A stretch of DNA of 37,284 nucleotides, from assembly GCA_964605995.1 (NCBI GenBank), contig CAZSEN010000002.1, positions 5,350-42,633 on the forward strand, written 5' to 3'. The DNA comes from an uncultured Candidatus Saccharibacteria bacterium. Lineage in GTDB: Bacteria > Patescibacteriota > Minisyncoccia > Phycocordibacterales > UBA9973. The notes below the pieces were generated by a model. The model was not told the origin of the DNA. It saw nothing but the letters and a program-made list of their open reading frames with translations, and ran no database searches. The position numbers and the translations under genes are program-made. Positions 1,801 to 36,570 of the stretch are shown here, piece after piece (positions within the stretch are counted from its first letter, which is position 1; every line of letters starts with the position of its first letter).

Positions 1801-1820
1801 CGAATGTCGCACAATATATC
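1801..1820. repeat. left copy of 20-bp direct repeat (candidate attL core)
   Basis: Exact match to 36539-36558. Flanking bases differ on both sides. Confidence 0.6.
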
Positions 1821-1861
1821 GTGTAAGATGTCAAGTTTTTGTGCACAGGTCAGCTAACGAA

Positions 1862-1890
1862 AAAACACCGAGAATTATTTTCGGTGTTTT
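1862..1890. terminator. bidirectional intrinsic terminator-like hairpin
   Basis: aaaaacaccga-gaattatt-ttcggtgtttttt: stem caccga/tcggtg with an A-run upstream and a T-run downstream. Confidence 0.5.
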
Positions 1891-1902
1891 TTATTTGCAC
1901 CT

Positions 1903-1978
1903 AACGGTCTGTGGAGTTGAAATTACGGGTGTAGGGGGCTGTTTTCTTCATTGTTGCAGTCCAACTCCATAGACCGTT
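1903..1978. repeat. 17-bp inverted repeat with 42-nt spacer upstream of replication-like genes
   Basis: aacggtctgtggagttg (1903-1919) against caactccatagaccgtt (1962-1978), 16 of 17 complementary. Confidence 0.5.
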
Positions 1979-2035
1979 GTGTGTAAGCGCAACGAAGAGG
2001 TCGAAACATTATCACGAAACAAAAGGTATTATTTC

Positions 2036-2251
2036 ATGCAGATTCTGAATGTATGCACCAAGTTTGTCTATAACAGTCACGGAGAGGAAAAAGTAAAATG
2101 GTTTAAAGCGGGAATCCTTAAAATAACGGATTCGGGACACAAATATCTCCGGTTCTTTCATCATCCGTACACGGATTTCTATGTCTTTGAAAAAGATCCC
2201 ACGCTCGACTCTCTTCCGATAATCGACTTTGACAAAATCACCAGACAATAA
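2036..2251 (+). CDS. hypothetical small protein
   Basis: In-frame ATG at 2036 (MQILNVCTKFVYNSHGEEKVKWFKAGILKITDSGHKYLRF...). The track start at 1979 is GTG and lies inside the inverted repeat. Confidence 0.4.
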   Translation: MQILNVCTKFVYNSHGEEKVKWFKAGILKITDSGHKYLRFFHHPYTDFYVFEKDPTLDSLPIIDFDKITRQ

Positions 2252-2288
2252 CTTGTCGCTTACAAGTCCATATTACCTACACCCATAT

Positions 2289-2702
2289 ATGCTATTTTAC
2301 ACCACCCCGGTACCAAACGCGGTTATTCGACTCATTCCAACATTGAACGGAGGAGAAACCAAAGTGATTCTCATTGTTGTTCAAAAAACACTCGGCTGGA
2401 AAGATGAAACCACAATGAGCAAGCGGAAAGAGCGCGACTGGATTTCAATCAGTCAGTTTGAAACGGAATCAGGTATGTCGCGCCGCACCATTGGATTTGC
2501 CATTGATTCGCTTGTTGAGAAGGGACATATCATCGTCACTGACCATGCAGGAAACGTGGTTAATACACCAGAGAAGCGCAAAGGCTGTTCACGGTTGTAT
2601 TTCCAGTTATCCCCAGCCCTCATGCCACCCAGCGAAGATTACAACACCTACCTGCGAAGAAAAAGCGCTGAACTAGCGAATAAATTTCGCTATACAAAGT
2701 AA
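2289..2702 (+). CDS. replication-initiator-like winged-helix protein (phage replication protein O N-terminal-like)
   Basis: VILIVVQKTLGWKDE...RDWISISQFETESGMSRRTIGFAIDSLVEKGHIIV is the pattern of replisome-organizer/RepO-type wHTH domains. I prefer the ATG at 2289 over the TTG at 2229. Confidence 0.5.
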   Translation: MLFYTTPVPNAVIRLIPTLNGGETKVILIVVQKTLGWKDETTMSKRKERDWISISQFETESGMSRRTIGFAIDSLVEKGHIIVTDHAGNVVNTPEKRKGCSRLYFQLSPALMPPSEDYNTYLRRKSAELANKFRYTK

Positions 2703-2733
2703 AACTCTACAAAAGAAACTCTACAAAGTAAAA
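2690..2733. repeat. three imperfect tandem 14-15-bp repeats (iteron-like)
   Basis: ctatacaaagtaaaa / ctctacaaaagaaa / ctctacaaagtaaaa, overlapping the stop codon of the rep-like gene. Confidence 0.45.
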
Positions 2734-2824
2734 GAAGATAATAAGGGAGGAGAGTTGGGGAAAACTTCCTAGAAAGAAATATGCAGAATACGATTCCAGT
2801 AGATAACATTCTCCAAAATAATAG

Positions 2825-3064
2825 TTAATCATCATCGAACTCATATCCTGTTCCTCCGCAAGTTTGACATTGCCCGGTACCAGAACAGACTCCACACTCT
2901 CCTTCATCTTCAGTCAGCCCAAAATGATTAGTCATGGAATCGATAAACCCCAAATGTTTGCCTGTCCCATGACATCTGCTGCAGTTCCCGTCACCTTGAT
3001 CAGATAAAATCATTGTCGCACCCTTATCACAATCCGTGCACTTTTTCTGATTGTCTTTTTCCAT
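2825..3064 (-). CDS. stand-alone DnaJ cysteine-rich (CxxCxGxG) zinc-finger protein, 79 aa
   Basis: Four motifs: CTDCDKG, CSRCHGTG, CGVCSGTG, CQTCGGTG. ATG start at 3064. Confidence 0.75.
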   Translation of the reverse strand: MEKDNQKKCTDCDKGATMILSDQGDGNCSRCHGTGKHLGFIDSMTNHFGLTEDEGECGVCSGTGQCQTCGGTGYEFDDD

Positions 3065-3101
3065 AGTTTTTATTATTTCAATTGTTTGCTAGACTTAACT
3101 A

Positions 3102-5833: not shown

Positions 5834-5842
5834 TTGCCACCC

Positions 5843-7291
5843 ATGCAGCACAAGCCGCTCCATATCCCGCCGAATAAAAAGTTCAAAGGATTGAAAATCG
5901 TCTGCTATGGATGCGGAACGCTGGTTAATGGCGTGTGCAAGAAGACGGGGAAGCCACTTGCAACATGCCAGTTTGGAGATAAGCACAGGTATAAGGTCAT
6001 TGTCCATGTTCCCGGCACGAAGAACGAGCGGAGAGTGAAAGTTCTGGAAACGAGAACGTATGACGAAGCAGTGAAGCAAGCGATAGATTTTCAGAGAGAA
6101 ATCAAAGAACAGGCGAAAGGTACTGAGCGAATAACATCAGTGGAGTTGATGCAGGGAATAGTAGCGAAGCCCGTACACGTGCCGGAAATAAGGCAGGTTC
6201 AGCAAATCAAATCATACAGCCTGGTCGATCTCATGGCCCGATATGTGGGCTATCTCCACGGCGACCCGGAAATTGTGCCTGAATTCCGGAAAAAGGTGCG
6301 AAGCAAGGGACACATTGATGATGTTGAGCGAACCTTCAAGTACTTTGTCAAAGCGCTCAAGAATAATGCGTATGATGTACATTCGCTTCGTGTCGATGAA
6401 ATTGATGATCGAGCAATCGGAAAATTCCACGAATATCTGCTCAAAGAATTGAACCTCGGAAACAGCAGCTATAACAAATCGCTCACGGTTCTGACCAGCT
6501 TCTACAACTACCTCAACAACATCGAAGGGTATCACATCCGGAATCCGTTCCTGGGAATCCCGAGAAAATCGGTTATCGGTAACATTGACACGATCTCACA
6601 CGATGAGTACAGCAAGCTTTTGGACATTGTGCAAAAGCCGGAACTGGGCATTGCAACATTGGGTACTGGCGAAGAAAAGAACTTGTACAAGCCGTGGGTG
6701 AAAGACGCGATTGAATTGGGCCTTCACACCGGACGCCGAAACGAGGAAATTGCGCGGATGAATTGGAAAGAGCTGCATGAGGATGACATGGGAAATCCAG
6801 CGTACATCAAAGTGCCGGACTTCAAAGTCAACCGTCAGCGGGGAAGCAGTGAAGAGAATCTTAAATATATTTATGTGCCCGTGACGGAGGATTTGAAAGA
6901 ATTGCTTGAACGTCTCGGGTATGAAAAATACAAGGGCACTGAGAAATATATTCTCGCGCCAGAGGAAGACATGGAGCGCGATACAATCAGGAAGCTCATG
7001 TCGCGTTCGTTCACGCATTACTACAAGCAATTGGGTACCGGAAAAAATTTGTCGTTCAAATCTCTGCGCAAAACATATATCACGCAATTGACGAATTACA
7101 TGGGCATGGACAATGCGCGACTGATTACAAAGCATAGCGGTACGGAAGTGATGCAGGAACATTACATCGACCAAAAAGCGATTGCGAAAACCGCACAGGG
7201 ATTCAAGATGTTCGACGAGAAAAAAACTACCCGTCAGGATGAACTTGAAAATATCAGGACAGTAAAAAAGAATCCATCACGTGATCGGTAA
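5843..7291 (+). CDS. tyrosine-type site-specific integrase (Bacteroidota-type with N-terminal arm-binding and SAM-like domains)
   Basis: GLHTGRRNEEIARMNW (Arg I), FKSLRKTYITQL and TKHSGTEVMQEHYI (His/Tyr region). Long N-terminal domain with a Cys cluster. ATG at 5843; the track start at 5834 is TTG. Confidence 0.9.
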   Translation: MQHKPLHIPPNKKFKGLKIVCYGCGTLVNGVCKKTGKPLATCQFGDKHRYKVIVHVPGTKNERRVKVLETRTYDEAVKQAIDFQREIKEQAKGTERITSVELMQGIVAKPVHVPEIRQVQQIKSYSLVDLMARYVGYLHGDPEIVPEFRKKVRSKGHIDDVERTFKYFVKALKNNAYDVHSLRVDEIDDRAIGKFHEYLLKELNLGNSSYNKSLTVLTSFYNYLNNIEGYHIRNPFLGIPRKSVIGNIDTISHDEYSKLLDIVQKPELGIATLGTGEEKNLYKPWVKDAIELGLHTGRRNEEIARMNWKELHEDDMGNPAYIKVPDFKVNRQRGSSEENLKYIYVPVTEDLKELLERLGYEKYKGTEKYILAPEEDMERDTIRKLMSRSFTHYYKQLGTGKNLSFKSLRKTYITQLTNYMGMDNARLITKHSGTEVMQEHYIDQKAIAKTAQGFKMFDEKKTTRQDELENIRTVKKNPSRDR

Positions 7292-7321
7292 AAAGGATAT
7301 TTTTGGAGAAATAAAAATCCC

Positions 7322-7525
7322 ATGAGCGATACCACCATCTGGAAAGTCAAGGCGAGCATTCAGTGGAGTACTATTGCCAAAGGAATGGAAGTTGAAGTTG
7401 TTGTCAAAAACCGGACAAACAGTAAGCCCAATGTTGGAGAAATAAAGGAAGCTTTAGAAAGGAAATATTCGATTAAAGTTCCGGGCGGCATGAGCACAAG
7501 CATTTTTGAATTTACCCGATGCTGA
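7322..7525 (+). CDS. small conserved hypothetical protein (67 aa) of mobile-element ends
   Basis: ATG ORF directly after the integrase. The pattern KGMEVEVVVKN...IKEALERKYSIK resembles small proteins I recall next to Bacteroidota element integrases. The family name is not certain. Confidence 0.45.
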   Translation: MSDTTIWKVKASIQWSTIAKGMEVEVVVKNRTNSKPNVGEIKEALERKYSIKVPGGMSTSIFEFTRC

Positions 7526-7542: not shown

Positions 7543-7584
7543 TTCCGCACCTAATTCCGCACCTAAACTGATTTTTTCCGCACC
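7543..7584 (+). promoter_or_regulatory. three direct TTCCGCACC repeats (candidate arm-type recombinase/Xis binding sites, left arm)
   Basis: Copies at 7543-7551, 7555-7563 and 7576-7584. Confidence 0.55.
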
Positions 7585-7644
7585 CACGTACTTTGAAGAA
7601 AAAGGAAAAGGCCTGAATCCTTTCGGTATCAAGCCTTTAACTCG

Positions 7645-7689
7645 CTCCCCCTTCAGGACTTGAACCTGAGACCCCATGATTAACAGTCG
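7645..7689 (-). pseudogene. tRNA-Asn(GUU) 3' fragment (anticodon loop to acceptor 3' strand), att core candidate
   Basis: The minus strand reads CUGUUAA-UCAUG-GGGUC-UCAGG-UUCAAGU-CCUGA-AGGGGGA-G. This gives a GUU anticodon loop, a 5-nt variable loop, a perfect 5-bp T stem with a T loop, and the acceptor 3' strand. No D arm or 5' acceptor strand is present upstream. Confidence 0.65.
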
Positions 7690-7766
7690 TTTGTTATTCG
7701 CGGGATATTGGCTAAAAACCGTATAAACGGCGATTATTTCGGACATCACGGTGCATTTTCCAGCAT

Positions 7767-7799
7767 TTCCGCACCCAAATTCCGCACCTGAACCGCACC
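7767..7799 (+). promoter_or_regulatory. three further direct (T)TCCGCACC repeats (right arm)
   Basis: Copies at 7767-7775 and 7780-7788, plus the variant ACCGCACC at 7792-7799. Same orientation as the left set. Confidence 0.55.
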
Positions 7800-7958
7800 T
7801 GAAATTTTAGGATTCTCTGCGGTATGTTCCAAAAAATCCTCCTGCAACTAGTATTTCAACCGAGCGCGATCATACCTGTTGTAGATGTGAATGAAAACTA
7901 GGCTGTCACGCTGTCAGATATATCAAGTAAGAAGCTAACCGCACATAACAATCTCACA

Positions 7959-8918
7959 ATGCCACGCAGATCACCACAAAAAGAAATATACAGTAGTATC
8001 TACAACAAGCTGCACAGGGTCATTCCTGACCTTGAAAAGCATCTTGCAAAAGGAGCATCGTCAGGAAAATCCGAATTGCCTTCCCCCGGAATGATGGATT
8101 TAAGTTTCGACTATCTGTACAACGATGAGGATGGCAATCCAGTCATCGCGATTGCGCATTACTTCAAGCAGAATGGCGATGTAGTACCTGATCCGGATAT
8201 GGAAATCAGAATTTTCCCGAAAGAAAAACTCGCTGAGGCGCTGACTTTCCAGGATCAATTTGTCTTTCAGCGCGTGTATGACGAATACAAAGGAGAGCCG
8301 TTCGTTCACTTCAAACGCAAAACCGAGTTGAATGCGTTTCTCAACCAATGGCTAAGCAATCTCATCGAACAAGGACACCGAATAGACTTATCTGAACACA
8401 CACAACCTGTCACGCCTCCACATATATCAGTAAAAGGAGAACAGGGACATTATTCACTTAAAAAACCAAACAATATGAGCAACACAGAAGAACAGAATCA
8501 ACCAATCAACGAAAGCAAAATGTATTTCATTGAAAAAGCCGCCTGGAAGAAAGGCGAAGAAATGATGACCGTTGTAGTCGGCGAAAAAGACGAATCGAAA
8601 AATGTCGTCGGCTACGTCCGTCTCGAAGGGTACGATGCGAACAGAAAGCCGATCCTCATCTCTACCGATGTAGACGGCAAGGAACTTTTTCCGGCATCGA
8701 ATAATCTCTTTGAACTCAAAAAGCAATTCAAGGACAATGAACGCCGATTGATCCCTGCCAGCCAGGAAAAAGAAAGCACTCCCGAAGTATCGGAAGAAAT
8801 TCAAGAGAGCGAAGAATCTGATTTTGAAGAAATGCCTGAGAATCCAGAACAGAAAAAAGAAAGTGAAGTCAAAGACCTCAGGCAGAAGAAGGATAAAGAC
8901 AAGGGAATAAACCGCTAA
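7959..8918 (+). CDS. hypothetical mobile-element protein with acidic/lysine-rich C-terminal tail
   Basis: ATG ORF of 319 aa. The N-terminal block IAIAHYFKQNGDVVPDPDMEIRIF is one I recall from conjugative/mobilizable element proteins. The family is not confirmed. Confidence 0.55.
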   Translation: MPRRSPQKEIYSSIYNKLHRVIPDLEKHLAKGASSGKSELPSPGMMDLSFDYLYNDEDGNPVIAIAHYFKQNGDVVPDPDMEIRIFPKEKLAEALTFQDQFVFQRVYDEYKGEPFVHFKRKTELNAFLNQWLSNLIEQGHRIDLSEHTQPVTPPHISVKGEQGHYSLKKPNNMSNTEEQNQPINESKMYFIEKAAWKKGEEMMTVVVGEKDESKNVVGYVRLEGYDANRKPILISTDVDGKELFPASNNLFELKKQFKDNERRLIPASQEKESTPEVSEEIQESEESDFEEMPENPEQKKESEVKDLRQKKDKDKGINR

Positions 8919-10717: not shown

Positions 10718-10873
10718 ATGGGAAGTGTCATTGGAGATATTCTAGTCGGACTGCTCAAAGTCATCGGAAAGATTTTTCTTTTCCTGCTGTGGGGCATCCT
10801 GCGGCTTGCTGAACTCATTTGCCATTCGCTTGCGTCATTTATTAAAAACATGCTTATCCCTAAAGAACGCTAA
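10718..10873 (+). CDS. small hydrophobic protein (51 aa), not in ORF track
   Basis: MGSVIGDILVGLLKVIGKIFLFLLWGILRLAELICHSLASFIKNMLIPKER. Its stop lies 4 nt before the coupling-protein ATG. Confidence 0.4.
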   Translation: MGSVIGDILVGLLKVIGKIFLFLLWGILRLAELICHSLASFIKNMLIPKER

Positions 10874-10877
10874 TCAT

Positions 10878-12344
10878 ATGTTAAACCTTCTTGAAAAATT
10901 GCTTGAATTATTCGTCCGCGCGATGGAGCACTTTTTCACGCGGATGGCTGAATTATTAGAGCGTTTCATTGACTACCTCTTTCAGAAAAACAAACATGCC
11001 TACAAAGCTGAATTCGTATCTGAAAAAGATTTGTTCATTGAGGATCATGAAGGCTTCTGTCTGACGGGCAAAGGAAATCTTTCGATTAAGAATTCATATC
11101 AAGGCGCGCTCGTCGTTGGCGGTACGGGAACGGGTAAATCAAGCATCACGCTCTTGCCCTCGCTCTATACCATGCGTTCCAGTTTCATCGTTCATGACCC
11201 CTCAGGCGAGTTATTCGCCAAAAGCGCCGGATACCTCACAGTTACGGGTTATAGCGTGCGTACGCTCAATTTTACCAATCCCATTGCGTCTTCCGGCTAC
11301 AATCCATTGGCGCGAGTACGGAGTTCCTCTGATATTCAGAAAATCGCTTCGATGTTAGTCGCAAATGCGCTAGGAAATAATGCAAAAGACCCGTTCTGGA
11401 ACACACAGGCAACGGCTCTACTTTCCATGCTGATTTCGATTCTCAAAAAACAGCCGGAGCAGTATTACAACCTGTATAACGTAAGGCAATTGTTGAATGA
11501 CTTGGGCGGCGGCAATACAAAAGCTGTGGATGCGCTGTTTTCCCGTCATGCTGACAGCGTGCTGTTTTCCGAATACAAATCGTTCATCGCGTATGATGAC
11601 AAGGTCATCAGCGGAGTCATTGCCACCTGCAAGGCAGCATTACAGATATTCTCCGATGATTCAATAGCGAAAATCACATCCTACGATACGCTCAATCTTG
11701 CGGACTTCAGAAGCAAGCCTGTTGCATTGTTTGTGCAGAATTCCATCGCGGACCAGAAATATTACAGCATCCTCACGTCCATTTTTTTCGAGCAGTTCTT
11801 CTCATATATCCTGAGCCGTTTTCCGGAGAAGGATGAACAGGATATTTTCTTCCTGATTGATGAAGCGTCATCGCTCAGACTTCCGACACTTCCGTTAGCC
11901 GTTGCCAATGTCCGCAAACACCGGGCGGGAATCATGCTCATTATCCAGGACTTCAACCAGCTCGTTCATACGTATGGCAAGCACGAAGCGGATGCGATAC
12001 GCGCCAACTGCTTCGCTAAGATGTTCTACACCGGGCAATCTTTGGATACTGCGAAGGAACTGGAACAGACACTTGGACGCTTCGAGTATAAGGACGATGA
12101 CGGTAAAGTCATCGTGCGTCCCTTGATGACCAACGATGAAATCCGCACGATGAAGAAAAATCAGGCTCTCCTCATCTGCGGACATCTCTCGCCGATGAAA
12201 GCAACTCTTCATCCGTATTACGAGAACCGGAAATTGAGAACCTATGCGAATATACCGGCTCCGGAACTCTACAATCAGGTGTCGATTGAAACCGTGCCGA
12301 TTCTGCCCTTAGACGTTCCTAAATCAAACGATGAAGCGGAGTGA
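10878..12344 (+). CDS. type IV secretion coupling protein (TraG/TraD/VirD4 family)
   Basis: Walker A VVGGTGTGKSS and Walker B FFLIDEASSL. The overall length and order fit a T4SS-DNA-transfer ATPase. I prefer the ATG at 10878 over the TTG at 10806. Confidence 0.9.
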   Translation: MLNLLEKLLELFVRAMEHFFTRMAELLERFIDYLFQKNKHAYKAEFVSEKDLFIEDHEGFCLTGKGNLSIKNSYQGALVVGGTGTGKSSITLLPSLYTMRSSFIVHDPSGELFAKSAGYLTVTGYSVRTLNFTNPIASSGYNPLARVRSSSDIQKIASMLVANALGNNAKDPFWNTQATALLSMLISILKKQPEQYYNLYNVRQLLNDLGGGNTKAVDALFSRHADSVLFSEYKSFIAYDDKVISGVIATCKAALQIFSDDSIAKITSYDTLNLADFRSKPVALFVQNSIADQKYYSILTSIFFEQFFSYILSRFPEKDEQDIFFLIDEASSLRLPTLPLAVANVRKHRAGIMLIIQDFNQLVHTYGKHEADAIRANCFAKMFYTGQSLDTAKELEQTLGRFEYKDDDGKVIVRPLMTNDEIRTMKKNQALLICGHLSPMKATLHPYYENRKLRTYANIPAPELYNQVSIETVPILPLDVPKSNDEAE

Positions 12345-12906
12345 GAAACATACAGGCGGGATATGGGCGTATCTCGATGCGTCTGGCGTTCTTGAAAAGG
12401 GGACCGAGGAGGAAATCAAGTCCGCCAAGCGCGCATACCGGAAAATCTACCTGAAGAAATACAAGCAAATTCAGCGGGACGAGAAGCCGGAGTTCACTGT
12501 CTTGCTTTCACGACAAAAAGGAGAGTACGGCAAAATCGCTCTTGCTGCAAAAAGGCATCACCTGAGCATTCCGGCATTTCTTCGTCAGGCGACATTCGCT
12601 TATTTAAACAAAGCCTATCTCGTTCCTGACACGGAATTGGTAGCGCGGCTGTATCAGAAACTGAGTGATTGTCTCAATGAAATTCACGCCATCACGAACA
12701 CGAAAGAAAAATATGATTGGGAGCATGAGCGGAAATTCGAGGCGATAGAAAAACGGATCGGGAAGCTGGAAACCGATATCGGCGAATTATTCCACAATCC
12801 TCCGCCCTTAGAAGATGCGGTGCGTAAAGCGATTGAAAAAAATCCTGATGTGCGGGAACAACTATTGAAAATGCTCACGGATGATCGTCAAGATAAAAAC
12901 GCATAA
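12331..12906 (+). CDS. MobC-like relaxosome accessory protein
   Basis: KIALAAKRHHLSIPAFLRQATFAYL is the ribbon-helix-helix MobC-type pattern. Overlaps both neighbouring genes. Confidence 0.65.
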   Translation: MKRSEKHTGGIWAYLDASGVLEKGTEEEIKSAKRAYRKIYLKKYKQIQRDEKPEFTVLLSRQKGEYGKIALAAKRHHLSIPAFLRQATFAYLNKAYLVPDTELVARLYQKLSDCLNEIHAITNTKEKYDWEHERKFEAIEKRIGKLETDIGELFHNPPPLEDAVRKAIEKNPDVREQLLKMLTDDRQDKNA

Positions 12907-13732
12907 GAAACCATCGTTTCGAAAATTGCTTGAGTATATGCTCAACGACAAGGAACGGTTATCCGACAAAGACAGTCGGAGTTTTCTCATGACGCATAAT
13001 CTCAGAGGCAAGGGTATCGAAACATGGGTGAAGCAATTTCAAGAAAATGAAACCTACCGCAAGCACAAGCGGAAAAACAGCGTATACGTCAATCACGAAA
13101 TCCTTTCCTGGCACAAAGACGATGTGAAGCACATGTCAGCAGACACCTTGCGAGATATGACGCGGGAATATCTCACGCTCCGTAATCCGAACGGAATGTA
13201 TGTCGCCGTTCCGCACTTCGACCGCGACCATTTCCATGTACATATTTGTTCGTCGGGAATCCAGTACCGCACCGGAAAATCAATGCGTATGTCGCGGCAG
13301 GAATTTCATGAACTCAAAAAAAACATTCAGGAGTATCAGATCGAAAAGTTTCCGGAACTCTCAAAGTCGGTCGTTGAACATGGGAAAAAGAAAAGCAGGC
13401 GGATTGTCACCGATGAAGAACGGCATTGTACAGAACGGACAGGAAAACAAACCAAGAAAGATGAACTGCTTTCTATTCTCAATGACTGCTTCATACACGC
13501 CACATCACAAGAAGATTTCTTTTCAAGATTAAAAGCGTGCAACCTGCAACCGTATGAGCGCGGAGGAAAAGTAACGGGTGTTATCTACGTGAAACGGAAA
13601 TACCGATTTAAGCGGTTGGGAATTGATCTAACCAAGTTCAAATCACTGGAGCAAGAAAACAAAAGGGAAAAAGAATTGCGGAATGTTCGAGAGAAAACAA
13701 AAGAGAAAAATGTTCGTCGGTCGCGTCGGTAA
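12881..13732 (+). CDS. relaxase/mobilization nuclease
   Basis: Histidine triad HFDRDHFHVHICSS and an N-terminal LLEYMLND block typical of the relaxase/mobilisation nuclease domain. Confidence 0.85.
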   Translation: MIVKIKTHKKPSFRKLLEYMLNDKERLSDKDSRSFLMTHNLRGKGIETWVKQFQENETYRKHKRKNSVYVNHEILSWHKDDVKHMSADTLRDMTREYLTLRNPNGMYVAVPHFDRDHFHVHICSSGIQYRTGKSMRMSRQEFHELKKNIQEYQIEKFPELSKSVVEHGKKKSRRIVTDEERHCTERTGKQTKKDELLSILNDCFIHATSQEDFFSRLKACNLQPYERGGKVTGVIYVKRKYRFKRLGIDLTKFKSLEQENKREKELRNVREKTKEKNVRRSRR

Positions 13733-13790
13733 TATGACCACACCACGTCATTCTTTCCTGCTAGGCACCTGTTTGCGGAAGTTGGGAGGT

Positions 13791-13851
13791 GTTGTCAAGG
13801 ATGCCCTGTGAAAGGAAGTGTGCAAGCGGGCACGTGCTTGTCCTTGACAAC
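13791..13851. repeat. 11-bp perfect inverted repeat with nested 5-bp stem (terminator or oriT candidate)
   Basis: gttgtcaagga (13791-13801) pairs with tccttgacaac (13841-13851). Inner stem caagc/gcttg. Confidence 0.4.
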
Positions 13852-13906
13852 GCTGGACAACGAGCGAGCTTTGCCGGAGCAGGGGAATGAGTAGCAAACT
13901 AACTTA

Positions 13907-14479: not shown

Positions 14480-14491
14480 AAACCCAAAGAT

Positions 14492-14920: not shown

Positions 14921-15292
14921 CTGATTACGAGTTTAGTATAGTTTCCTTCGTATGTCAACGTGTAGCGCAATTAATAGGGAATCATTCCAACTCCACGCAT
15001 TACGTTATCATTGCTTGCACAAAATTCTCCCTTTTTAGTTATTTCTACTCTTAAACTACAATACAAGTTACGTTATTATTTGAAAATAAGCTAATTGCAA
15101 ACATCGCTCCAATCCTTACTCGCGGTAAACGAATCAAGTACATCCAACCATTAAAATCTTCAGTCCGTCGTTTTGTCACATCTAAAAATTGGCATTTTTT
15201 AAGTTTTTCGAGGGATCCTGCCAAAAGGGATAAAAAGGGGCTCTTGGCACGTGCATTGACCAGTGAAGGTGGCATAACCTAACCTACACTTG

Positions 15293-15715: not shown

Positions 15716-15729
15716 TTCTCAAACGCACC

Positions 15730-16638: not shown

Positions 16639-16668
16639 TCCTTATTTATTAACTAAACAAAATTACTA

Positions 16669-17706: not shown

Positions 17707-17719
17707 TTCTTCAGGTTCA

Positions 17720-17768
17720 CCCTGTCGACAGTATGCGGAAGAGTCATTCTTTCGACAGGGTTTCTATT
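17720..17768 (+). terminator. intrinsic terminator-like hairpin
   Basis: ccctgtcga (17720-17728) pairs with tcgacaggg (17752-17760), followed by TTTCTATT. Confidence 0.5.
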
Positions 17769-17814
17769 CACTTAAATCAATAACGTATTTGTAAACACTA
17801 ATAAATTACCTGGC

Positions 17815-26640: not shown

Positions 26641-27319
26641 GAAACGTGGCGAGTGTCAAATTGCTCATATCTATCAGAAAAAAATCATGAGATGGAATAT
26701 AGTAATTGAAATAATATTTGGATGTGTATAAAATAAATGTAAAAAGACTTGGATATACCACCCGGATAGTTATACATTGCGTGAATTAAAAAGGAACTAC
26801 GCGCCGACCAACATCCCTTCGCAATACGTTCCTGTCAGTCGCCCTGACTGACTACTCGGGCGGTCAATTTATCAGCGAATTGATCGCAATTTACTCTACG
26901 CGGGTTCTGTAAAGAATCCGCGTAGTTAAATAACTATGCAATCTCCAAAGTGATGTCCGATTTCCTGATTCGCTTCCTGTAATTGCTGATATGGCTCATA
27001 AATCCGAATCAGTATTTGGAGTTGATTAAAAATGACGAAAATTTGTTCCTATATAAATAATAAATGATATACCTTTCCGTTATCGCATTCGTTAATTTCG
27101 CAAGAAGAAGTTTTGAATGTGTCATTCGCGATACCGCTCATTTCCCTCGGCGGTATCCCCGACACGCAAATGGAAGGCAATCGCAAGGCAAAGATGCTTT
27201 GCGTGTTCCGCAGTTTGTGGAGCGAGGTGGGACGGTGAATATGTACATCCGCGAAAATGCCACACAAGTGCGTGGTTGAGTTGCATTGTAGTAATAAGTC
27301 ACATAACATATCACACCCA

Positions 27320-30300
27320 ATGAAAACAAAAATTCTCCTGCTCTCCTGTATGCTTACAAGTGCATTGGCCAGCATTAGTCAGACCACATTGTGCAATCGC
27401 GAATGGGAAACCATTACCGCGCTCCCAGATACAGTAGATCTTACCATGTCGGCGATTGACAATACCGGCTGCGCAATTATTACCGGCAATACGAAAACAA
27501 TCGCGCAAGGAACAAACCTGCTATTGGTAAAATACAACGGTAACGGATCTATCTGTTGGCAGCAACAATATAACGGAGCTGCCAATGGCAGTGATTTTGG
27601 TAGTGCCGTTGTACAGGACAATAGCGGTAATATTTATGTGACCGGAGCAACCTGGGGCGGCAATGTCAATGGCTACGATTTCGTAACTTTAAAGTATAAC
27701 TCGAGTGGAATTTTGCAATGGTCAGTTTTATATAATGGTACGGGAAGCAAAAATGATATTCCGTCGCGTATCGCCGTCGATAACGCGGGGAATGTCTATG
27801 TCACCGGTGCAAGCATCGGGACGGGCAATGCTCTCAATTCTGATTACGCAACAATCAAATATACAGCAAGCGGCGCTCAGGTATGGGTGAAGCGATACAA
27901 CTACATTAACCTTCCAGATATTCCCGTAGGTCTTGTTGTCGATAACAGTGGGAATGTTTTTGTCGGGGGGACAAGCGCAAGCAGTTTTTTCAATTCTGAT
28001 TTCGCAGTGATTAAATACAATGCGGCGGGGACGCAGGTAGGTGTCTATCGTCATACTGTTCCGGGAAATGGATACGATAAGGCAACAGCGATCAGACTCG
28101 ATAACAACGGCAATGTATTTCTCTCTGGCGCAGTGCTTCAGGGATCGCCAACAAGCGATTTTGCGCTTGTTAAGCTCAGCAACGTATTGTCGTTCCAGTG
28201 GGTGCAGTATTACGACGGTGAAAGTCTTGATGATTGTGCGAATGCGCTTGAAGTTGATGCATGGGGCGATCCGGTAGTAACCGGCTGGACGAAAAAGCAA
28301 AACGGTGGCAAAGATTTTACTACGATTCGGTATTCAGGAACAGGTGCGCTCCAATGGATTCGCCGTGAAGCCGCTGCGATCTCCTCCAATTTCGGCGAAG
28401 CACACACTCTTGCAATCGACAACAACGGCGACGTGTTTGTGAGTGGAGAAATGACAAGTGCCCTCGGCAACAAGGATTTTCTGACGATCAAGTACACGAG
28501 TGGGGGAATAAAAGAATGGCAGAATTTCTTCAACAATCCATTCAATGCCGGAGATAAGTCCTACACGCTCTCCATGCGCAATAACATCCTTTATGCATGC
28601 GGTAAATCTTGCACAGGAGCGAATGATCAGTATGCGACTGTCAAATATTCTTTTCTCAATGCTCCACTCCTTGCCGATACAACTGTGCCTGGGACTGCAC
28701 CATTTGCAAAAGGCGAAGTTATTGTGCGCTTCGATCCAATTTCAGTAATCCCGACAAAAGTAAACGACAAGGATATTCAGTTTGGTTACGTTCACGAATT
28801 CATAACTCCTGCAGCGATTGCTGTAATGAATAACAAACTCCATACTGACGTAACTGATTGGCGAATCGCAAAAATTTTCCTTGATCTTACGACGCTGGAT
28901 ACCATTTCCATTTCACGGACGAATGACACCGTTCCGATTCCGACTTTCTGGGCTGCATTCCGGATTTTTACATCTGGAATGCCTGATCAGGTTGTCGCTG
29001 ATTCTCTCAATCATTGTCAACCAGAACTCTGGTACGCACATCTTAATTTCATCGTTGCGACGCAAAACGTGCCTAATGACAATGAATACAATTTGAATCA
29101 AGGGAGCTTGCATCCGACAACGTTATATCCAGGTGGACATATCAACATGGAACCGGCGTGGGACATAGAGCGAGGAAATTCCAACATTCGCGTTGGTATT
29201 TACGATACAGGAATTGATCAATTGCATCCTGAATTACAAGGCCGTGTAGTTGGAGGATATAATTACAGCACTAATACAGCACTATCAACACCGTATGATA
29301 ATTTCGGTCATGGAACTTCTTGTGCAGGTATTGTCGGTGCAAAACGAAACAACTCTGCAGGTATTGCAGGTATTGCGGGAGGAGATGGAACACCGCTGTT
29401 TGACGGAGTGCAATTATTCGATATGCACATCTTAGAACCTAATGCTACAGTGTCACTTATTTGTAACGCGATTACGGGTGGCGCGACAAGCGTAGCACAA
29501 GGAGGATTCGGCTTAAACATTATGAGTAACAGTTGGGCGGCTGGCGTGGGTGCTTGCCAAGCGTGTTTCAACCAACAGGAAATAAGCCTTATGAAAGATG
29601 CTGTGCGATATGCTGCTCGGAATAAGGTAGTTTTTGCAGCATCACGAGGAAATGACGGAAACACAGACCTGCTTTTTCCAGCGTGCTACCCCGACGAGTT
29701 TGTTCTAAATGTCGGCGCGACCGGGACGAACGGCGAGTATAAAGATCTCTCAAATGGTGATCCGTACTCGTCCAGTTACGATGGAGGGATCGACTTCTGT
29801 GCACCTGGCACTACGCAACTCGTGTATACTACCGAGTCGGGAACAGGGAGCTATCATACCTTCAACGGAACTTCTGCTGCTTGTCCACATGTTGCAGGAA
29901 CCGCTGCACTGATGTTGAGTCAGAACAATACGCCTTCAATTCCATTCCTCTTCCATCTTCAACCGGAAGATGTGGAACATATACTTCAGGGCACGGCGAC
30001 CGATCTGACAGGCGGTTCAGCGTCGCCTGGATACGATGCTTATACTGGGTACGGCCGTATCAATGCAGGTTCTGCCCTTGATGAAACAGATTATCCCAAG
30101 TATAAAGTATATCACTATGGTACAGCAGAAAACTCCACAGGTTACGTTATTACACCCTCTCTTTATTTATCAGGCGTTTCAGTAATTCTTCCTAACAGCT
30201 ATCAAAGCGTTGCTGCGGGAATTTATGAAGCAGATATTCATAAGGTAACGCACACGATTAACTTTACACCAATTCCGGGGAATGAGGTAATCTTGGGAAT

Positions 30301-30814
30301 ATGGCCACGGTATAATTCTTCTTTTGGATGGAGTTTGGCAAACCCGCTTGGTACTGAGGCGTGGAGCAATATCGTTTCTTTTACGAACGGTCAAGTGATC
30401 ATGGAAACGTATTTCTACCATTTTACGCAGAACTCAACAACCCAGCAGACAATGAATCTCTACCTGCCTTCAACACAATTCGGAACTAAGGCGGCAATCA
30501 GCATCATGACGTATGATCCGAATGCCGTAGGTGTTGCGGAGAATTCTGAGCCTGGATTTACGATTAGTGAACCGTTCCCTAATCCAGCCAATGATAACGT
30601 CAATCTATATGTTACTTTACAAGATCATACTTCAGTGACTGTCGATCTTTTTGATATGGAGGGGCGACTTGTAAAAACGCAGCAGGAAGGCGAACTTCCA
30701 GCGGGAGTGCATCTCATCGAAATGCAGACCGCCGAAATTTCTGAAGGTGTGTATTTCATGAAAGTAACTACTGGAAAAGGAACGCTACCGAAAAAAATAC
30801 TTATCGTCCATTAA
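27320..30814 (+). CDS. S8 subtilisin-family peptidase with N-terminal SBBP beta-propeller repeats and T9SS C-terminal sorting domain
   Basis: Repeats of the form YNG..NG.D...A...D..GN.YVTG. Catalytic VGIYDTGID, HGTSCAGIVGA and NGTSAACPHVAG. C-terminal FPNPANDNVNLYV...GVYFMKV...KKILIVH matches the Por-secretion tail pattern. ATG at 27320. Confidence 0.9.
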   Translation: MKTKILLLSCMLTSALASISQTTLCNREWETITALPDTVDLTMSAIDNTGCAIITGNTKTIAQGTNLLLVKYNGNGSICWQQQYNGAANGSDFGSAVVQDNSGNIYVTGATWGGNVNGYDFVTLKYNSSGILQWSVLYNGTGSKNDIPSRIAVDNAGNVYVTGASIGTGNALNSDYATIKYTASGAQVWVKRYNYINLPDIPVGLVVDNSGNVFVGGTSASSFFNSDFAVIKYNAAGTQVGVYRHTVPGNGYDKATAIRLDNNGNVFLSGAVLQGSPTSDFALVKLSNVLSFQWVQYYDGESLDDCANALEVDAWGDPVVTGWTKKQNGGKDFTTIRYSGTGALQWIRREAAAISSNFGEAHTLAIDNNGDVFVSGEMTSALGNKDFLTIKYTSGGIKEWQNFFNNPFNAGDKSYTLSMRNNILYACGKSCTGANDQYATVKYSFLNAPLLADTTVPGTAPFAKGEVIVRFDPISVIPTKVNDKDIQFGYVHEFITPAAIAVMNNKLHTDVTDWRIAKIFLDLTTLDTISISRTNDTVPIPTFWAAFRIFTSGMPDQVVADSLNHCQPELWYAHLNFIVATQNVPNDNEYNLNQGSLHPTTLYPGGHINMEPAWDIERGNSNIRVGIYDTGIDQLHPELQGRVVGGYNYSTNTALSTPYDNFGHGTSCAGIVGAKRNNSAGIAGIAGGDGTPLFDGVQLFDMHILEPNATVSLICNAITGGATSVAQGGFGLNIMSNSWAAGVGACQACFNQQEISLMKDAVRYAARNKVVFAASRGNDGNTDLLFPACYPDEFVLNVGATGTNGEYKDLSNGDPYSSSYDGGIDFCAPGTTQLVYTTESGTGSYHTFNGTSAACPHVAGTAALMLSQNNTPSIPFLFHLQPEDVEHILQGTATDLTGGSASPGYDAYTGYGRINAGSALDETDYPKYKVYHYGTAENSTGYVITPSLYLSGVSVILPNSYQSVAAGIYEADIHKVTHTINFTPIPGNEVILGIWPRYNSSFGWSLANPLGTEAWSNIVSFTNGQVIMETYFYHFTQNSTTQQTMNLYLPSTQFGTKAAISIMTYDPNAVGVAENSEPGFTISEPFPNPANDNVNLYVTLQDHTSVTVDLFDMEGRLVKTQQEGELPAGVHLIEMQTAEISEGVYFMKVTTGKGTLPKKILIVH

Positions 30815-32701: not shown

Positions 32702-32790
32702 AATTTACTAGCCCTGATAGAAGTGTTTTGCCACGCAATAACGAAAGCAGGGGCGAAGATATTTTAATGAACAGAAGTTGCGCTCCGAAT
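32702..32790. repeat. copy 1 of ~89-bp direct repeat (68-nt near-identical core 32723-32790)
   Basis: The core differs from 34043-34110 at 3 positions. Its 3' end runs into a perfect 16-bp palindrome, ccgaataattattcgg (32785-32800). Confidence 0.7.
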
Positions 32791-34021: not shown

Positions 34022-34110
34022 AATTTCTCTAGCCGTGATTGAGTGTTTTGCCACGCAATAACGAAAGCAGGAGCAAAGATATTTTAATGAGCAGAAGTTG
34101 CGCTCCGAAT
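34022..34110. repeat. copy 2 of ~89-bp direct repeat
   Basis: See copy 1. The cores are offset by exactly 1320 bp. Confidence 0.7.
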
Positions 34111-34504: not shown

Positions 34505-34548
34505 GATTTCTTACCAGATGACGGAATGAAATTTTCTCAATAAAAACC

Positions 34549-34577
34549 TTGACAAGACATTTCATTCGTGATACTGT
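34549..34577 (+). promoter_or_regulatory. sigma-70-type promoter (extended -10)
   Basis: TTGACA (34549-34554), a 17-nt spacer ending in TGa, and TACTGT (34572-34577). Confidence 0.45.
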
Positions 34578-34583
34578 AAAGTC

Positions 34584-34784
34584 GGTCGTTTATAAAGTTA
34601 AGAACCCACTGTCCCTGAAAGGGGATCAACCGAAAGGTTTGAGGAAACATTGGGTTTGTATTATGACATGGCATTTTAGCACGTTGCGCATGTGATGCCT
34701 AAGTGTCCTGTCCTTTCTTGTAACTGAGAAAGGAACGATTAATGCAAACACCCGCTGATTTCCTCAGTCGGGTGTTTGCATTTT
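34584..34784 (+). ncRNA. candidate ~200-nt non-coding transcript or leader (unit U1)
   Basis: Lies between the promoter and a strong terminator. No ORF longer than about 10 codons. Internal stems include cctttct/agaaagg. Confidence 0.35.
34742..34784 (+). terminator. strong intrinsic terminator ending 3 nt before the next ATG
   Basis: atgcaaacacccg (34742-34754) pairs with cgggtgtttgcat (34769-34781), extended by ctga/tcag, followed by TTT. Confidence 0.6.
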
Positions 34785-35207
34785 ATGAGATTATCAGAAG
34801 CAATTGAAAAGTTCACAAAGTGGAGAGCGTTTCAAGTTAAAAAGGCAACAGTCACAGGATACGACCTTATACTTCGTCAGTTCTGCATGTACGTTCGTGA
34901 TTGTGAAATTGAACATGTGCGTTTAGAAGATGTTGTTTCATGGTTTGAATTAATGGCTCATCTGAATTGGAAATACAATTCATTCATTCCAAAAGCACAA
35001 GCGCTGAAGAAGTTCTTTGAGTTTTATAAAAGACAAGGACTTCTTGTTCTTGATCCTGGGCTTATTCCATCACCATCAAAGCAGTACAATATTCCACGCG
35101 TTGCAACAGAGGAAAATTACTCCAAGTTGCTTGCGGCAATTCCTGCTGGTAGTAACGATCCCCGGCATATTCGCAATAAGGCAATCATCATGCTTCTCTG
35201 GGATAGC
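34785..35207 (+). pseudogene. truncated tyrosine recombinase (N-terminal SAM-like domain and start of catalytic domain only)
   Basis: SEAIEKFTKWRAF...VTGYDLILRQFCMYV...RLEDVVSWF...KAQALKKFFEFYKRQG...ATEENYSKLLAAI...IRNKAIIMLLWDS. Homology stops just before the expected Arg-I box, where the hicA 3' end begins. Confidence 0.6.
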
Positions 35208-35214
35208 CAACCAC

Positions 35215-35469
35215 TTATTTTTTATTGCTGGTATAGAAAAATGCCCTCAATTCGTGCTCAGGAATGTGTGGTAGAAGCTTTTTGAATATCTGATGCAAAG
35301 TTCCGCGATCTATTTCTTTATGTGCTGGGATGGTAATGATTTGTTTTGCTCTATTGATTACCCGGACAAGGTTAACATGGCTTCCTCGGATTCTGCTTAT
35401 TTCAAAACCGTGATGTCTACAAAACCCAATCACTTCTTTTCCAGAAACCCGCTTCAACTTGTTAGGCAT
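35215..35469 (-). CDS. hicA: HicA-family toxin
   Basis: KRVSGKEVIGFCRHHGFEISRIRGSHVNLVR...ITIPAHKEIDRGTLHQIFKK. Confidence 0.8.
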   Translation of the reverse strand: MPNKLKRVSGKEVIGFCRHHGFEISRIRGSHVNLVRVINRAKQIITIPAHKEIDRGTLHQIFKKLLPHIPEHELRAFFYTSNKK

Positions 35470-35692
35470 GTAAGGAAATCGGTAATTCGTAATTGATAAA
35501 AATCGAAGGAGTGCGACTTATGGATTTTTGATCAGCCTTTGCTTCCTCAAAGTACAGTTCAGTTGCCTCAGAAATATTTTTTACGAGTCCTTCAAGATTC
35601 TTGGCCTGGGTTACAATAGGGAAGTTGGCTGCGGAGGCAACGTAATGACCGTCCTGACCTTTTTCAATAACAAAGTGGATGATGTTCTTCAT
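35462..35692 (-). CDS. hicB: HicB-family antitoxin
   Basis: MKNIIHFVIEKGQDGHYVASAANFPIVTQAKNLEGLVKNISEATELYFEE. ATG at 35692. 8-nt overlap with hicA. Confidence 0.75.
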   Translation of the reverse strand: MKNIIHFVIEKGQDGHYVASAANFPIVTQAKNLEGLVKNISEATELYFEEAKADQKSISRTPSIFINYELPISLHA

Positions 35693-35699
35693 ATTATTG

Positions 35700-35727
35700 A
35701 TTATACAGGTGTTTCGTATTTTGGCAA
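35700..35727 (-). promoter_or_regulatory. sigma-70-type promoter for hicBA
   Basis: Minus strand: TTGCCA (35722-35727), a 16-nt spacer, and TATAAT (35700-35705), 7 nt before the hicB ATG. Confidence 0.55.
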
Positions 35728-35750
35728 TGCTGTGTTCGGGGCTGACCCTC

Positions 35751-35780
35751 TTGACAATCAAATAGGGAGTAGGGTATAAT
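35751..35780 (+). promoter_or_regulatory. near-consensus sigma-70 promoter, divergent from hicBA
   Basis: TTGACA (35751-35756), an 18-nt spacer, and TATAAT (35775-35780). Confidence 0.55.
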
Positions 35781-35786
35781 TTTTTC

Positions 35787-35985
35787 GGTTGAATTATAAA
35801 TCTTAATAACAAGACCGTTGCCCTGCTTGCAGGGAGGTTCCGACATCAGTCGGAACAGAGACGAACAACGGTGGCTTGAATTTAGCTTCTCTTTTTCTGT
35901 TTCTATGGTAAGCTAATTGCGTTCTGACTTTTTGTCGGAACCATAAAGCCCGCTGTGATTCGTCTCCGGCGGGCTTTATGGTTTT
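35787..35985 (+). ncRNA. candidate ~200-nt non-coding transcript or leader (unit U2)
   Basis: No ORF. Stems accgttg/caacggt, ccctg/caggg and ttccgac/gtcggaa. A second gtcggaacc copy (35934-35942) overlaps the terminator arm. Confidence 0.35.
35939..35985 (+). terminator. strong intrinsic terminator (15-bp perfect stem) ending 2 nt before the next ATG
   Basis: aaccataaagcccgc (35939-35953) pairs with gcgggctttatggtt (35969-35983), followed by TT and then the ATG at 35986. Confidence 0.65.
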
Positions 35986-36432
35986 ATGTTGTTTAAGAAA
36001 AAAGAGAAATTCATGGCAATGCAAATCGCTGTTTATGCAGCGTACTTGCGAAAAAAGGGGATAAGCGGAGATGATTATTGGCTTAAAGCTTTTTTGAAAT
36101 TCACCAGGAAGCAGGACATACACGATGTTGTAGATTCAGATGTAAGGGAATTTTGCGAAAGCATAAGAATGGTACACACGCCCTATGCAATGATTAAGGT
36201 CCACAGGGAAATAAATAACCTAAGGAGGTATTATTGCGCGCGAAGTAAAAATATCAAAAAGAGTAAAGGGGGAAGACCGTTCGACATTGACAAGATCATG
36301 CTTGTAAAAAATCTAAGTAAGAACGGGCTTAGTGTTCGCAAAATCTCTGCCACGCTTGGCTTTTATCCAACACAAGTACAGCGTTGGAATAAATTTCCGG
36401 AGAAGAAGCTGGAGGAGTTTTCCCCAACATAA
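35986..36432 (+). CDS. integrase N-terminal SAM-like domain fused to a C-terminal HTH (no catalytic domain)
   Basis: AVYAAYLRKKGISGDDYWLKAFLKFTRKQDIHDVVDSDVREFCESI matches the SAM-like pattern. GRPFDIDKIMLVKNLSKNGLSVRKISATLGFYPTQVQRW is a resolvase-type HTH. The start could instead be the ATG at 36013. Confidence 0.55.
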   Translation: MLFKKKEKFMAMQIAVYAAYLRKKGISGDDYWLKAFLKFTRKQDIHDVVDSDVREFCESIRMVHTPYAMIKVHREINNLRRYYCARSKNIKKSKGGRPFDIDKIMLVKNLSKNGLSVRKISATLGFYPTQVQRWNKFPEKKLEEFSPT

Positions 36433-36507
36433 TCTGTACACAAAACCATCGGCGTGATATTCTAGAGTCAGTAACAACGATCCTTCAATGATAACAGGGG
36501 ATTTACT

Positions 36508-36532
36508 ACCGAATTCATCGGTCGATTTTTTT
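36508..36532 (+). terminator. weak intrinsic terminator
   Basis: accga/tcggt stem followed by a T7 run. Confidence 0.4.
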
Positions 36533-36538
36533 GTTTAG

Positions 36539-36570
36539 CGAATGTCGCACAATATATCTTTTGCGACATT
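36539..36570. repeat. right copy of 20-bp direct repeat embedded in a palindrome (candidate attR / original attB hairpin)
   Basis: cgaatgtcgcacaatatatc (36539-36558). Arms aatgtcgca (36541-36549) and tgcgacatt (36562-36570) are reverse complements around a 12-nt spacer. Confidence 0.6.

Follow-up and report, generated by a model that had tools for sequence, protein, structure and literature searches.

A mobilizable island at a dif-like site in the chromosome of a probable Patescibacteria bacterium

A 34.7-kb mobilizable island, with a backbone of the kind found in Bacteroidota, is inserted in the chromosome of a probable ultra-small Patescibacteria (CPR) bacterium, at a short palindromic site that resembles the chromosome-dimer-resolution site, dif. 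The island lies within a 37,284-nt window (the whole stretch of DNA analysed) and is bracketed by two exact copies of the 20-mer CGAATGTCGCACAATATATC. Comparison with other assemblies recovered all four attachment forms, namely the empty site (attB) in a related chromosome, L024, the joined element ends (attP) in two relatives, L022 and L023, and attL and attR in the window itself, together with a related element at the same locus in another genome, L025. The segment is therefore a discrete, site-specifically integrated element. Our best reading, held with moderate confidence, is that it is an IMEX-like island (IMEX, integrative mobile element exploiting Xer) that uses a host Xer-type recombinase, although the recombinase itself is inferred.

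Borders and attachment sites of the integrated element

The direct repeat described in the initial annotation is real. The 20-mer occurs exactly twice, at 1801-1820 and 36539-36558 on the + strand, with different flanking bases on both sides, no other match was found with up to 3 mismatches, and 0 of 100 shuffles gave any match. At the right copy the repeat pairs with TTTTGCGACATT and, as single-stranded DNA, folds at -8.2 kcal/mol (z = -3.4), while the left copy does not fold (z = +0.4). The initial annotation described this palindrome as 9-nt arms around a 12-nt spacer, but it is better read as two 12-nt arms, matching at 11 of 12 positions, around a 6-nt spacer. Accordingly, attR (36539-36570, +) is an intact 12-6-12 site comprised of CG, AATGTCGCACAA, TATATC, and TTTTGCGACATT, whereas attL (1801-1832, +) is comprised of CG, the host-side arm AATGTCGCACAA (1803-1814), the spacer TATATC (1815-1820), and an element-derived divergent arm, GTGTAAGATGTC (1821-1832), that is conserved in attP of L022 and L023 and in attL of L025. 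The body of the element (1821-36538, +) is 34,718 bp between the repeats, or 34,738 bp with one core copy.

The junctions are not an assembly artefact. In run X1, k=31 Logan contigs of 24,895 and 11,131 nt cross attL and attR without a difference and at even depth (13.6-14.7), and a 20-bp repeat cannot create such joins at k=31. Breaks near both att sites in the Logan contigs of run X2 support no inference, as X2 is fragmented every few hundred bases at about 3-5x depth. No excision products (attB or attP) were seen in the assembled contigs of the runs, which drop rare forms.

The initial annotation predicted that joining the two flanks would restore a single palindrome, and this empty site exists almost verbatim in L024 (8586-8660), where the left flank, one palindrome, and the right flank are contiguous and a blastn alignment with the window jumps from 1818 to 36542. 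In L022 and L023, in contrast, the right end, core, and left end of the element are contiguous. The attP of L022 and L023, and the inferred attP of the present element, read AA(T/C)GTCGCACAA-TATA(T/C)C-(G/A)TGTAAGATGTC, against an attB of GATGTCGCACAA-TATACC-TTTTGCGACATT, and the spacer variants TATACC and TATATC agree between partner sites. Thus, attP keeps one arm and the spacer of the target but has a divergent second arm.

Gene content of the island and its flanks

The chromosomal left flank encodes ribosomal protein L27 (rpmA, 100-372, -; Pfam Ribosomal_L27, E = 1e-30), which is syntenic with L024 and L025, falls in the same 90% cluster as their L27 proteins, and shows 81-85% tblastx identity. 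The last chromosomal gene before the site encodes a CAP/SCP-domain protein (821-1744, +; Pfam CAP, E = 9.5e-15), whose named homologues are from Paceibacterota, Nomurabacteria, and Giovannonibacteria. The assignment of the host to Patescibacteria is only probable, as it rests on the named homologues of this one flank protein and on the titles of the two MAGs described below. The right-flank gene (36637-37110, -; Pfam DUF4325, E = 2e-5) is STAS-like, as the initial annotation stated, but it is absent from L024, where synteny resumes only at 37147, and is therefore a variable gene next to the site. An exact-match look-up of its protein returned nothing.

The element encodes a type IV coupling protein (T4CP) of the VirD4/TraG family (10806-12344, +; Pfam T4SS-DNA_transf, E = 1e-55), whose named homologues at 60-67% identity are Bacteroidota, and a MOBP-type relaxase (12881-13732, +; Pfam Relaxase, E = 7.5e-15, with weak NCBIfam MobP hits). 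No VirB4 or other T4SS family was detected among about 50 ORFs scanned against Pfam and ten against NCBIfam, and no oriT was identified. The presence of a relaxase and coupling protein without detected mating-pore genes, within att-bounded borders and with a joined form in relatives, is that of an integrative mobilizable element. Cargo includes an S8 subtilase with a T9SS C-terminal sorting domain (27257-30814, +; Pfam Peptidase_S8, SBBP, and Por_Secre_tail). The element also encodes a HicA toxin (35215-35469, -; Pfam HicA_toxin, E = 5e-12), adjacent to a gene (35462-35812, -) that resembles HicB by eye only and has no Pfam hit. At the left end, an HTH_36/phage RepO-like DNA-binding protein (2229-2702, +) is supported by weak Pfam hits (E = 1.3e-4 and 1.8e-4) but is conserved in L022, L023, and L025.

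Two tyrosine-recombinase genes are present. The first encodes an apparently intact integrase of 485 aa (5834-7291, +; Pfam Phage_integrase and Phage_int_SAM_5) with 79% nucleotide identity to the L022 copy. Beside it lies a second, unused attP-like site (7543-7800, -), in which a tRNA-Asn(GUU)-like 3' fragment (7645-7689) is flanked on both sides by TTCCGCACC repeats (repeat family D5). The fragment was read directly from the sequence and is not called by ARAGORN or Rfam, although the start of the region is conserved in L022. As this site is intact inside the element, it was not the crossover site for the present insertion. The second gene (34776-35285, +) is truncated, retaining only the N-terminal domain and the start of the catalytic domain, with a weak Phage_int_SAM_1 hit and no downstream catalytic frame.

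Close to the right end, 35986-36432 (+) encodes a small protein, P0121, with a four-helix N-terminal domain and a C-terminal HTH, supported only by weak Pfam hits (Phage_int_SAM_4 and HTH_23) and none in NCBIfam. Its family comprises 81 cluster representatives, almost all of 140-175 aa. In 6 of 6 loci a P0121-family gene is followed on the same strand by the dif-like site, at 101-132 nt in five loci and 831 nt in one. The structure model is of low confidence (pLDDT 64) and Foldseek returned only generic HTH matches, so no fold is assigned. Homology between P0121 and the ORF of L004, a mini-insert described below, is not claimed, as BLASTP is not significant and hhalign gives only 28% probability.

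The target site and the inferred route of integration

The interpretation offered by the initial annotation is partly supported: the repeat does mark attL and attR of an inserted mobile element, and the geometry is that of a tyrosine-recombinase core site, but its terminator label is not supported and the use of the element's own integrase that it implied is doubtful. The palindrome has no T-run and is not called by a terminator scan, which instead calls separate canonical terminators at 36614-36590 (-), belonging to the right-flank gene, and at 36508-36522 (+). The target is therefore probably not a terminator. An RNA-gene target is also rejected, as Rfam and ARAGORN found no RNA gene at the site, in the window, or in two further sequences, L002 and L003.

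The sequence, position, and distribution of the palindrome fit a dif-type recombination site instead. It shares 17 of 28 positions with E. coli and B. subtilis dif, a score reached by 30 of 200,000 shuffles. In L024, for which a single 15.9-kb contig rather than a whole chromosome was analysed, the cumulative G-C maximum falls at nt 8632, inside the site at 8629-8658, with a skew of +0.021 to the left and -0.030 to the right (block permutation p = 0.011), and genes are mostly on the + strand to the left and all on the - strand to the right. The exact 20-mer was found in only 2 of about 185,000 species genomes, both of them Patescibacteria MAGs in which the neighbouring genes are unrelated, and other low-depth contigs in the same metagenomes hold similar palindromes with different flanks. 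Predicted Bacteroidetes dif sites differ from this palindrome (Kono 2011), which disfavours its being a mimic of a Bacteroidota dif.

The full site also sits on inovirus-like contigs encoding Zot and G2P Rep (L012, L015, and L017), and it borders a 770-bp mini-insert (L004) without a detected recombinase, although not every ORF of the inovirus-like contigs was covered by the screen for recombinases. Of 17 IMG/VR hits to the 17-mer, five (L007, L008, L010, L016, and L018) have unrelated right sides and are treated as chance. No further half-sites lie inside the element, so a tandem IMEX array is rejected.

What the comparisons show directly is that integration went through the 30-bp site AATGTCGCACAA-TATATC-TTTTGCGACATT, that attP carried the same left arm and 6-bp spacer with a divergent right arm, and that recombination therefore duplicated CG, the arm, and the spacer (the 20-bp repeat), leaving a complete palindrome at attR and a crippled site at attL. 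We infer that the chromosomal site is this lineage's dif at the replication terminus, in which case the crossover would be catalysed by a host Xer-type tyrosine recombinase and the element would be an IMEX. More weakly, we infer that P0121, encoded about 110 nt upstream of attP, may be the element's accessory factor for this reaction, functionally comparable to XafT, although the link is positional only. The divergent arm at attL may stabilise the integrated state, and the 485-aa integrase probably belongs to a second docking system, the tRNA-Asn-like attP, that is not the one used here.

The strongest alternative, which we consider unlikely, is a classical integrase-driven island in which the 485-aa integrase recombines the 20-bp core with a conserved intergenic palindrome that is merely a favoured target without dif function. 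The integrase is apparently intact, is conserved in L022, and could in principle act at the core, many islands use short identity segments of 15-25 bp, and the role of a host Xer is supported only indirectly. However, the integrase is immediately followed by its own attP-like site in the usual layout for a heterobivalent integrase, the same palindrome is carried by inovirus-like contigs and by a mini-insert in which no integrase was detected, the gene that accompanies the site in the loci examined encodes P0121 rather than an integrase, and the site resembles dif and sits at a skew and orientation switch. Less likely still, recombination may have been catalysed by a dedicated element-borne recombinase that has since decayed, represented by the truncated gene at 34776-35285, such that the element would be a stranded remnant and the palindrome a lox-like private site. 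This gene lies 1.3 kb from attP, and its leader resembles that upstream of the P0121 homologue in L023 (blastn, L023 496-707 against window 34543-34787). However, L022 and L023 have no such recombinase near attP yet keep the site and P0121, the site occurs in unrelated chromosomal contexts in other Patescibacteria MAGs, and a private site would not be expected at a GC-skew switch. An in silico joining of a Bacteroidota element to Patescibacteria flanks through a shared 20-mer, suggested by the metagenomic origin of the data and the disagreeing phylum signals of flank and cargo, is largely refuted by the k=31 contigs, by the related element at the same CAP locus in an independent NCBI assembly (L025), and by the matching attB and attP from independent samples.

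A broader possibility, which remains tentative, is that the palindrome is the previously undescribed dif of at least part of the Patescibacteria, served by a single Xer-type recombinase, and that the P0121 family is a new class of Xer-hijacking factor that travels with a dif mimic as a portable docking module on phages and mobilizable elements. Such a module would let a Bacteroidota-type island, which keeps an integrase and tRNA docking kit for its usual hosts, also lodge in a CPR chromosome, a two-phylum docking strategy that is perhaps between an epibiont and its host. In the literature searched, no paper describes a dif/Xer system or an IMEX for Patescibacteria, and a 2025 survey notes only that relaxases are rare there and probably arrived on acquired elements (PMC12102498). 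If the dif reading holds, this locus gives a candidate dif for CPR genomes, useful for locating termini and orienting MAGs, and a concrete case of conjugative-type DNA of Bacteroidota affinity fixed in a CPR chromosome, while the small protein family tied to the site would be a testable candidate for a new recombination accessory factor.

Comparison with known integrative elements

Bacteroides-type integrative mobilizable elements (NBU1/NBU2-like) dock in tRNA 3' ends. The named homologues of the present mobilization backbone are Bacteroidota, its tyrosine integrase lies next to a tRNA-3'-end-like attP, and a relative in a 3-Mb chromosome abuts a tRNA-Leu-like fragment. That docking site is not the one used here, and the host flank is Patescibacteria-like.

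The attP design of the island, with one arm and the overlap region conserved, matches that of the gonococcal genetic island (GGI), Legionella LME-1, and TLCφ (PMC5357621, PMC9765430, PMC6744903). As in TLCφ, attP has a poor second arm and a small element-encoded protein lies next to it, and just as filamentous phages such as the IMEXs CTXφ and VGJφ carry dif mimics (PMC6744903), the inovirus-like contigs here carry the full dif-like site. P0121 lacks a DUF3653 hit, however, and is not proposed to belong to the known XafT family (HTH + DUF3653) of Xer activation factors, which is confined to beta- and gamma-proteobacteria; the comparison concerns only how it may work.

The GGI of Neisseria, a 57-kb IMEX, is likewise a large island carrying a relaxase and coupling protein, integrated at dif and flanked by the intact dif and a dif-like site that keeps one arm and the central region but has a divergent other arm (PMC5357621, PMC6744903). 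GGI encodes a full T4SS and no integrase, whereas the present element has only a T4CP and a relaxase, plus an integrase with a separate tRNA-like attP, in a probable CPR host. Xer dependence is proven for GGI and only inferred here, and the near-perfect palindrome of the present site suggests a single recombinase species rather than XerC plus XerD.

In Legionella, the modified site of LME-1 differs at three bases rather than across a whole arm, its arms share no sequence with the present site, and the recombinase, XerL, was identified and tested, while the recombinase acting here is inferred by analogy. In both systems the att of the element is identical to part of a roughly 29-bp dyad-symmetric site (22 bp in LME-1, 20 bp here) that is conserved across species in varying gene neighbourhoods and lies near the GC-skew maximum, here that of the single 15.9-kb L024 contig, and integration leaves one intact and one modified site, which in LME-1 stabilises the insert. 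There, the mobile element revealed a previously unknown dif (PMC9765430).

A discrete element bounded by a 20-bp direct repeat

The 20-mer CGAATGTCGCACAATATATC occurs exactly twice, at 1801-1820 and 36539-36558 on the + strand, and no third copy is found with up to three mismatches, nor does any appear in 100 shuffles. The bases on either side of the two copies differ, and the repeat described in the initial annotation is therefore real. At the right copy, the repeat continues into TTTTGCGACATT and folds as a hairpin (-8.2 kcal/mol, z = -3.4), while the left copy does not fold. The sequence derives from groundwater metagenomes, and in one run (X1) contigs built with 31-mers cross both the left junction, attL (a 24,895-nt contig), and the right junction, attR (an 11,131-nt contig), with no difference from the window and at an even depth of 13.6-14.7. 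Given that a 20-bp repeat cannot produce such joins at k=31, an assembly chimera is largely excluded. In the same run, two haplotypes of the right flank (window 36658-36898; depths 7.2 and 8.0, about 5% apart) coexist, while the element and the left flank show a single haplotype at about 14x.

The left flank comprises rpmA, encoding ribosomal protein L27 (100-372, minus strand), a small protein (444-830) and a CAP-domain gene (821-1744), while the right flank carries a DUF4325 gene (36637-37110, minus strand). Between the repeats lie genes for a RepO-like HTH protein, a 485-aa tyrosine integrase (5834-7291), a DUF6908 protein, a type IV coupling protein (10806-12344), a MOBP-type relaxase (12881-13732), RadC, J-domain and thioredoxin-fold proteins, an S8 subtilase with a T9SS sorting tail (27257-30814), HicA (35215-35469, minus strand) and a 148-aa protein, P0121 (35986-36432), together with a truncated recombinase gene (34776-35285). 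No mating-pore genes were found among these, so the element is, on its gene content, mobilizable and not self-transmissible. Two pairs of non-coding direct repeats lie within the element, one of 131 nt at 89% identity (17143-17273 and 19409-19539) and one of 69 nt at 96% identity (32722-32790 and 34042-34110), and the same 69-nt unit also joins contigs in run X1. Paralogous leader regions precede the truncated recombinase gene (34543-34787) and P0121 (35751-35985), the first of which matches, at 70% identity, the leader of the P0121 homologue in L023, a related element from another sample.

Attachment forms in related sequences

Comparison with other assemblies recovered all four attachment forms, attB, attP, attL and attR, and we regard it as nearly certain that the repeat bounds a discrete, site-specifically integrated element. 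The empty site, attB, is found in L024, a 15.9-kb contig of a related chromosome whose CAP protein is 71% identical to that of the window. L024 has the same neighbourhood (rplI, rpmA, small gene, CAP) followed by one palindrome, GATGTCGCACAA-TATACC-TTTTGCGACATT, and its blastn alignment to the window runs over 46-1818, then 36542-36591, then 37147-37274, skipping exactly the 34.7 kb. The joined form, attP, is found in L022 and L023, two relatives of the element from two other samples, in which homologues of the window's right end (P0121 gene, 71% and 58% identity) and left end (RepO-like gene, integrase) are contiguous across one core copy, AATGTCGCACAA-TATACC-ATGTAAGATGTC. A further attL is provided by L025, from an NCBI assembly with a CAP protein 67% identical, which shows the same left junction with a related element, while the window itself supplies attL and attR. 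The spacer variant agrees between partners, being TATACC in L022, L024 and L025 and TATATC in L023 and the window, as is expected if these six bases are the strand-exchange overlap.

The region just to the right of the site is not conserved, as the window (36559-37146) carries the DUF4325 gene while the empty-site relative (L024 8659-9957) carries genes for 116-aa and 187-aa proteins. A DUF4325 paralogue also lies inside the element (14492-14920), and the flank gene may be a remnant of an earlier insert.

A candidate dif-type target

The initial annotation proposed that the insertion had targeted an intergenic terminator hairpin, and this interpretation is only partly supported, as the repeat does mark an integrated element but the palindrome is not called as a terminator and has no T-run, and canonical terminators instead lie beside it. 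The site is comprised of two 12-nt arms, matching at 11 of 12 positions, around a 6-nt spacer. The 20-bp repeat corresponds to CG, the left arm and the spacer, and identity stops at the spacer's edge.

Four lines of evidence point to a dif-type site. First, the site shares 17 of 28 positions with the textbook dif sequences of E. coli and of B. subtilis, a score reached by only 30 of 200,000 composition-preserving shuffles. Second, in L024 the cumulative G-C maximum falls at nt 8632, inside the site at 8629-8658, with a skew of +0.021 to the left and -0.030 to the right (block permutation p = 0.011), and called genes are mostly on the + strand to the left and all on the - strand to the right, although this positional evidence comes from one short contig of a relative. 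Third, the exact 20-mer occurs in only two of about 185,000 species genomes, both of which are Patescibacteria MAGs (a Saccharibacteria MAG and a 'Patescibacteria group' MAG) with unrelated neighbouring genes (Fic; class I aldolase), and both hits lie near contig ends. In L003, from a Patescibacteria MAG, a weak Ribosomal_L33 ORF (7141-7362, minus strand) lies about 330 nt from a half-site, and other low-depth contigs in the same metagenome runs carry similar palindromes with different flanks.

Fourth, unrelated mobile elements carry the site. Of 17 IMG/VR hits to the 17-mer, five have the full inverted arm, TTTT[GA][CT]GAC[AG]T, which we calculate to arise by chance at about 2e-6 per hit. Three of these five (L012, L015 and L017) are contigs of 5.3-6.3 kb that encode Zot and/or a G2P-type Rep and are thus filamentous-phage-like. 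These contigs, none of which has terminal repeats showing circularity, carry the complete 12-6-12 palindrome and may be inoviruses that use the same site. In addition, a 1,125-nt metagenome contig, L004 (JADMIO011048914.1), holds a half-site, 770 nt with one 135-aa ORF, and then a full palindrome, and may represent a minimal insert at the same kind of site. The ORF resembles the P0121 N-terminus only weakly (hhalign probability 28%).

Integrase, phyla and the inferred mode of integration

Directly downstream of the integrase, the region 7543-7800 contains a tRNA-Asn(GUU)-like 3' fragment (7645-7689, minus strand) with three TTCCGCACC repeats on each side, and the start of this region is conserved in L022. 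The fragment was identified by inspection of the sequence, as ARAGORN and Rfam do not call fragments. This is the layout of an intact attP for an arm-binding integrase, so the integrase's presumed site was not used for this insertion. A relative of the mobilization backbone, in the 3.07-Mb contig L029 (about 6900-6965 and 13786-20175), is preceded by an abutting tRNA-Leu(UAA)-like 3' fragment and carries defence-type cargo, namely PycTM, E2-CBASS, a KAP NTPase and an AAA_15/21 ATPase.

Flank and element differ in phylum signal. Named homologues of the CAP flank protein are Paceibacterota, Nomurabacteria and Giovannonibacteria, and the host phylum is inferred from these and from the two MAGs that hold the 20-mer, while named homologues of the coupling protein, at 60-67% identity, are Bacteroidales, Lentimicrobiaceae and other Bacteroidota, and the cargo includes a T9SS-tailed protease. 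Predicted Bacteroidetes dif sites differ from the palindrome.

The sequences themselves establish that crossover occurred within the 20-bp core, between an attP with one good arm and an attB with two, leaving an intact palindrome at attR and a crippled site at attL, which retains the divergent arm GTGTAAGATGTC of attP. That the target is dif, and that catalysis was carried out by a host Xer-type recombinase, are inferences from sequence, position and analogy, which we favor with moderate confidence. In this view, the near-perfect dyad suggests a single recombinase species.

A new element-side feature is the P0121 family, for which a profile search of 1.84 billion representatives found 81 clusters (at 50% identity), nearly all of 140-175 aa. 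In all six loci examined (the window, L022, L023 and L026-L028), the gene is followed on the same strand by GTCGCA[CG]AAT[AG]TA[TC]C, a dif-like half or full site, at a distance of 101-132 nt in five loci and 831 nt in one, where a gene has been inserted. Three of these loci, L026-L028, are distant family members in unrelated gene contexts, two of which carry phage-type genes (YqaJ; HNH and RNase H). The gene and its site (window 35986-36558) look like a portable docking module. We therefore propose, on positional evidence, that P0121 may be an attP-bound accessory factor, although no fold could be assigned to it.

Several known systems offer parallels to this model. The argument for a dif-type target parallels the one that identified dif in Legionella from LME-1 (PMC9765430). 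The inferred use of a host Xer-type recombinase follows the gonococcal genetic island (GGI), LME-1 and TLCφ (PMC5357621, PMC6744903), and the crippled attL should disfavor excision, as shown for LME-1 and GGI. The proposed role of P0121 is comparable to that of XafT, although P0121 is not a member of that family, since it has no DUF3653 domain.
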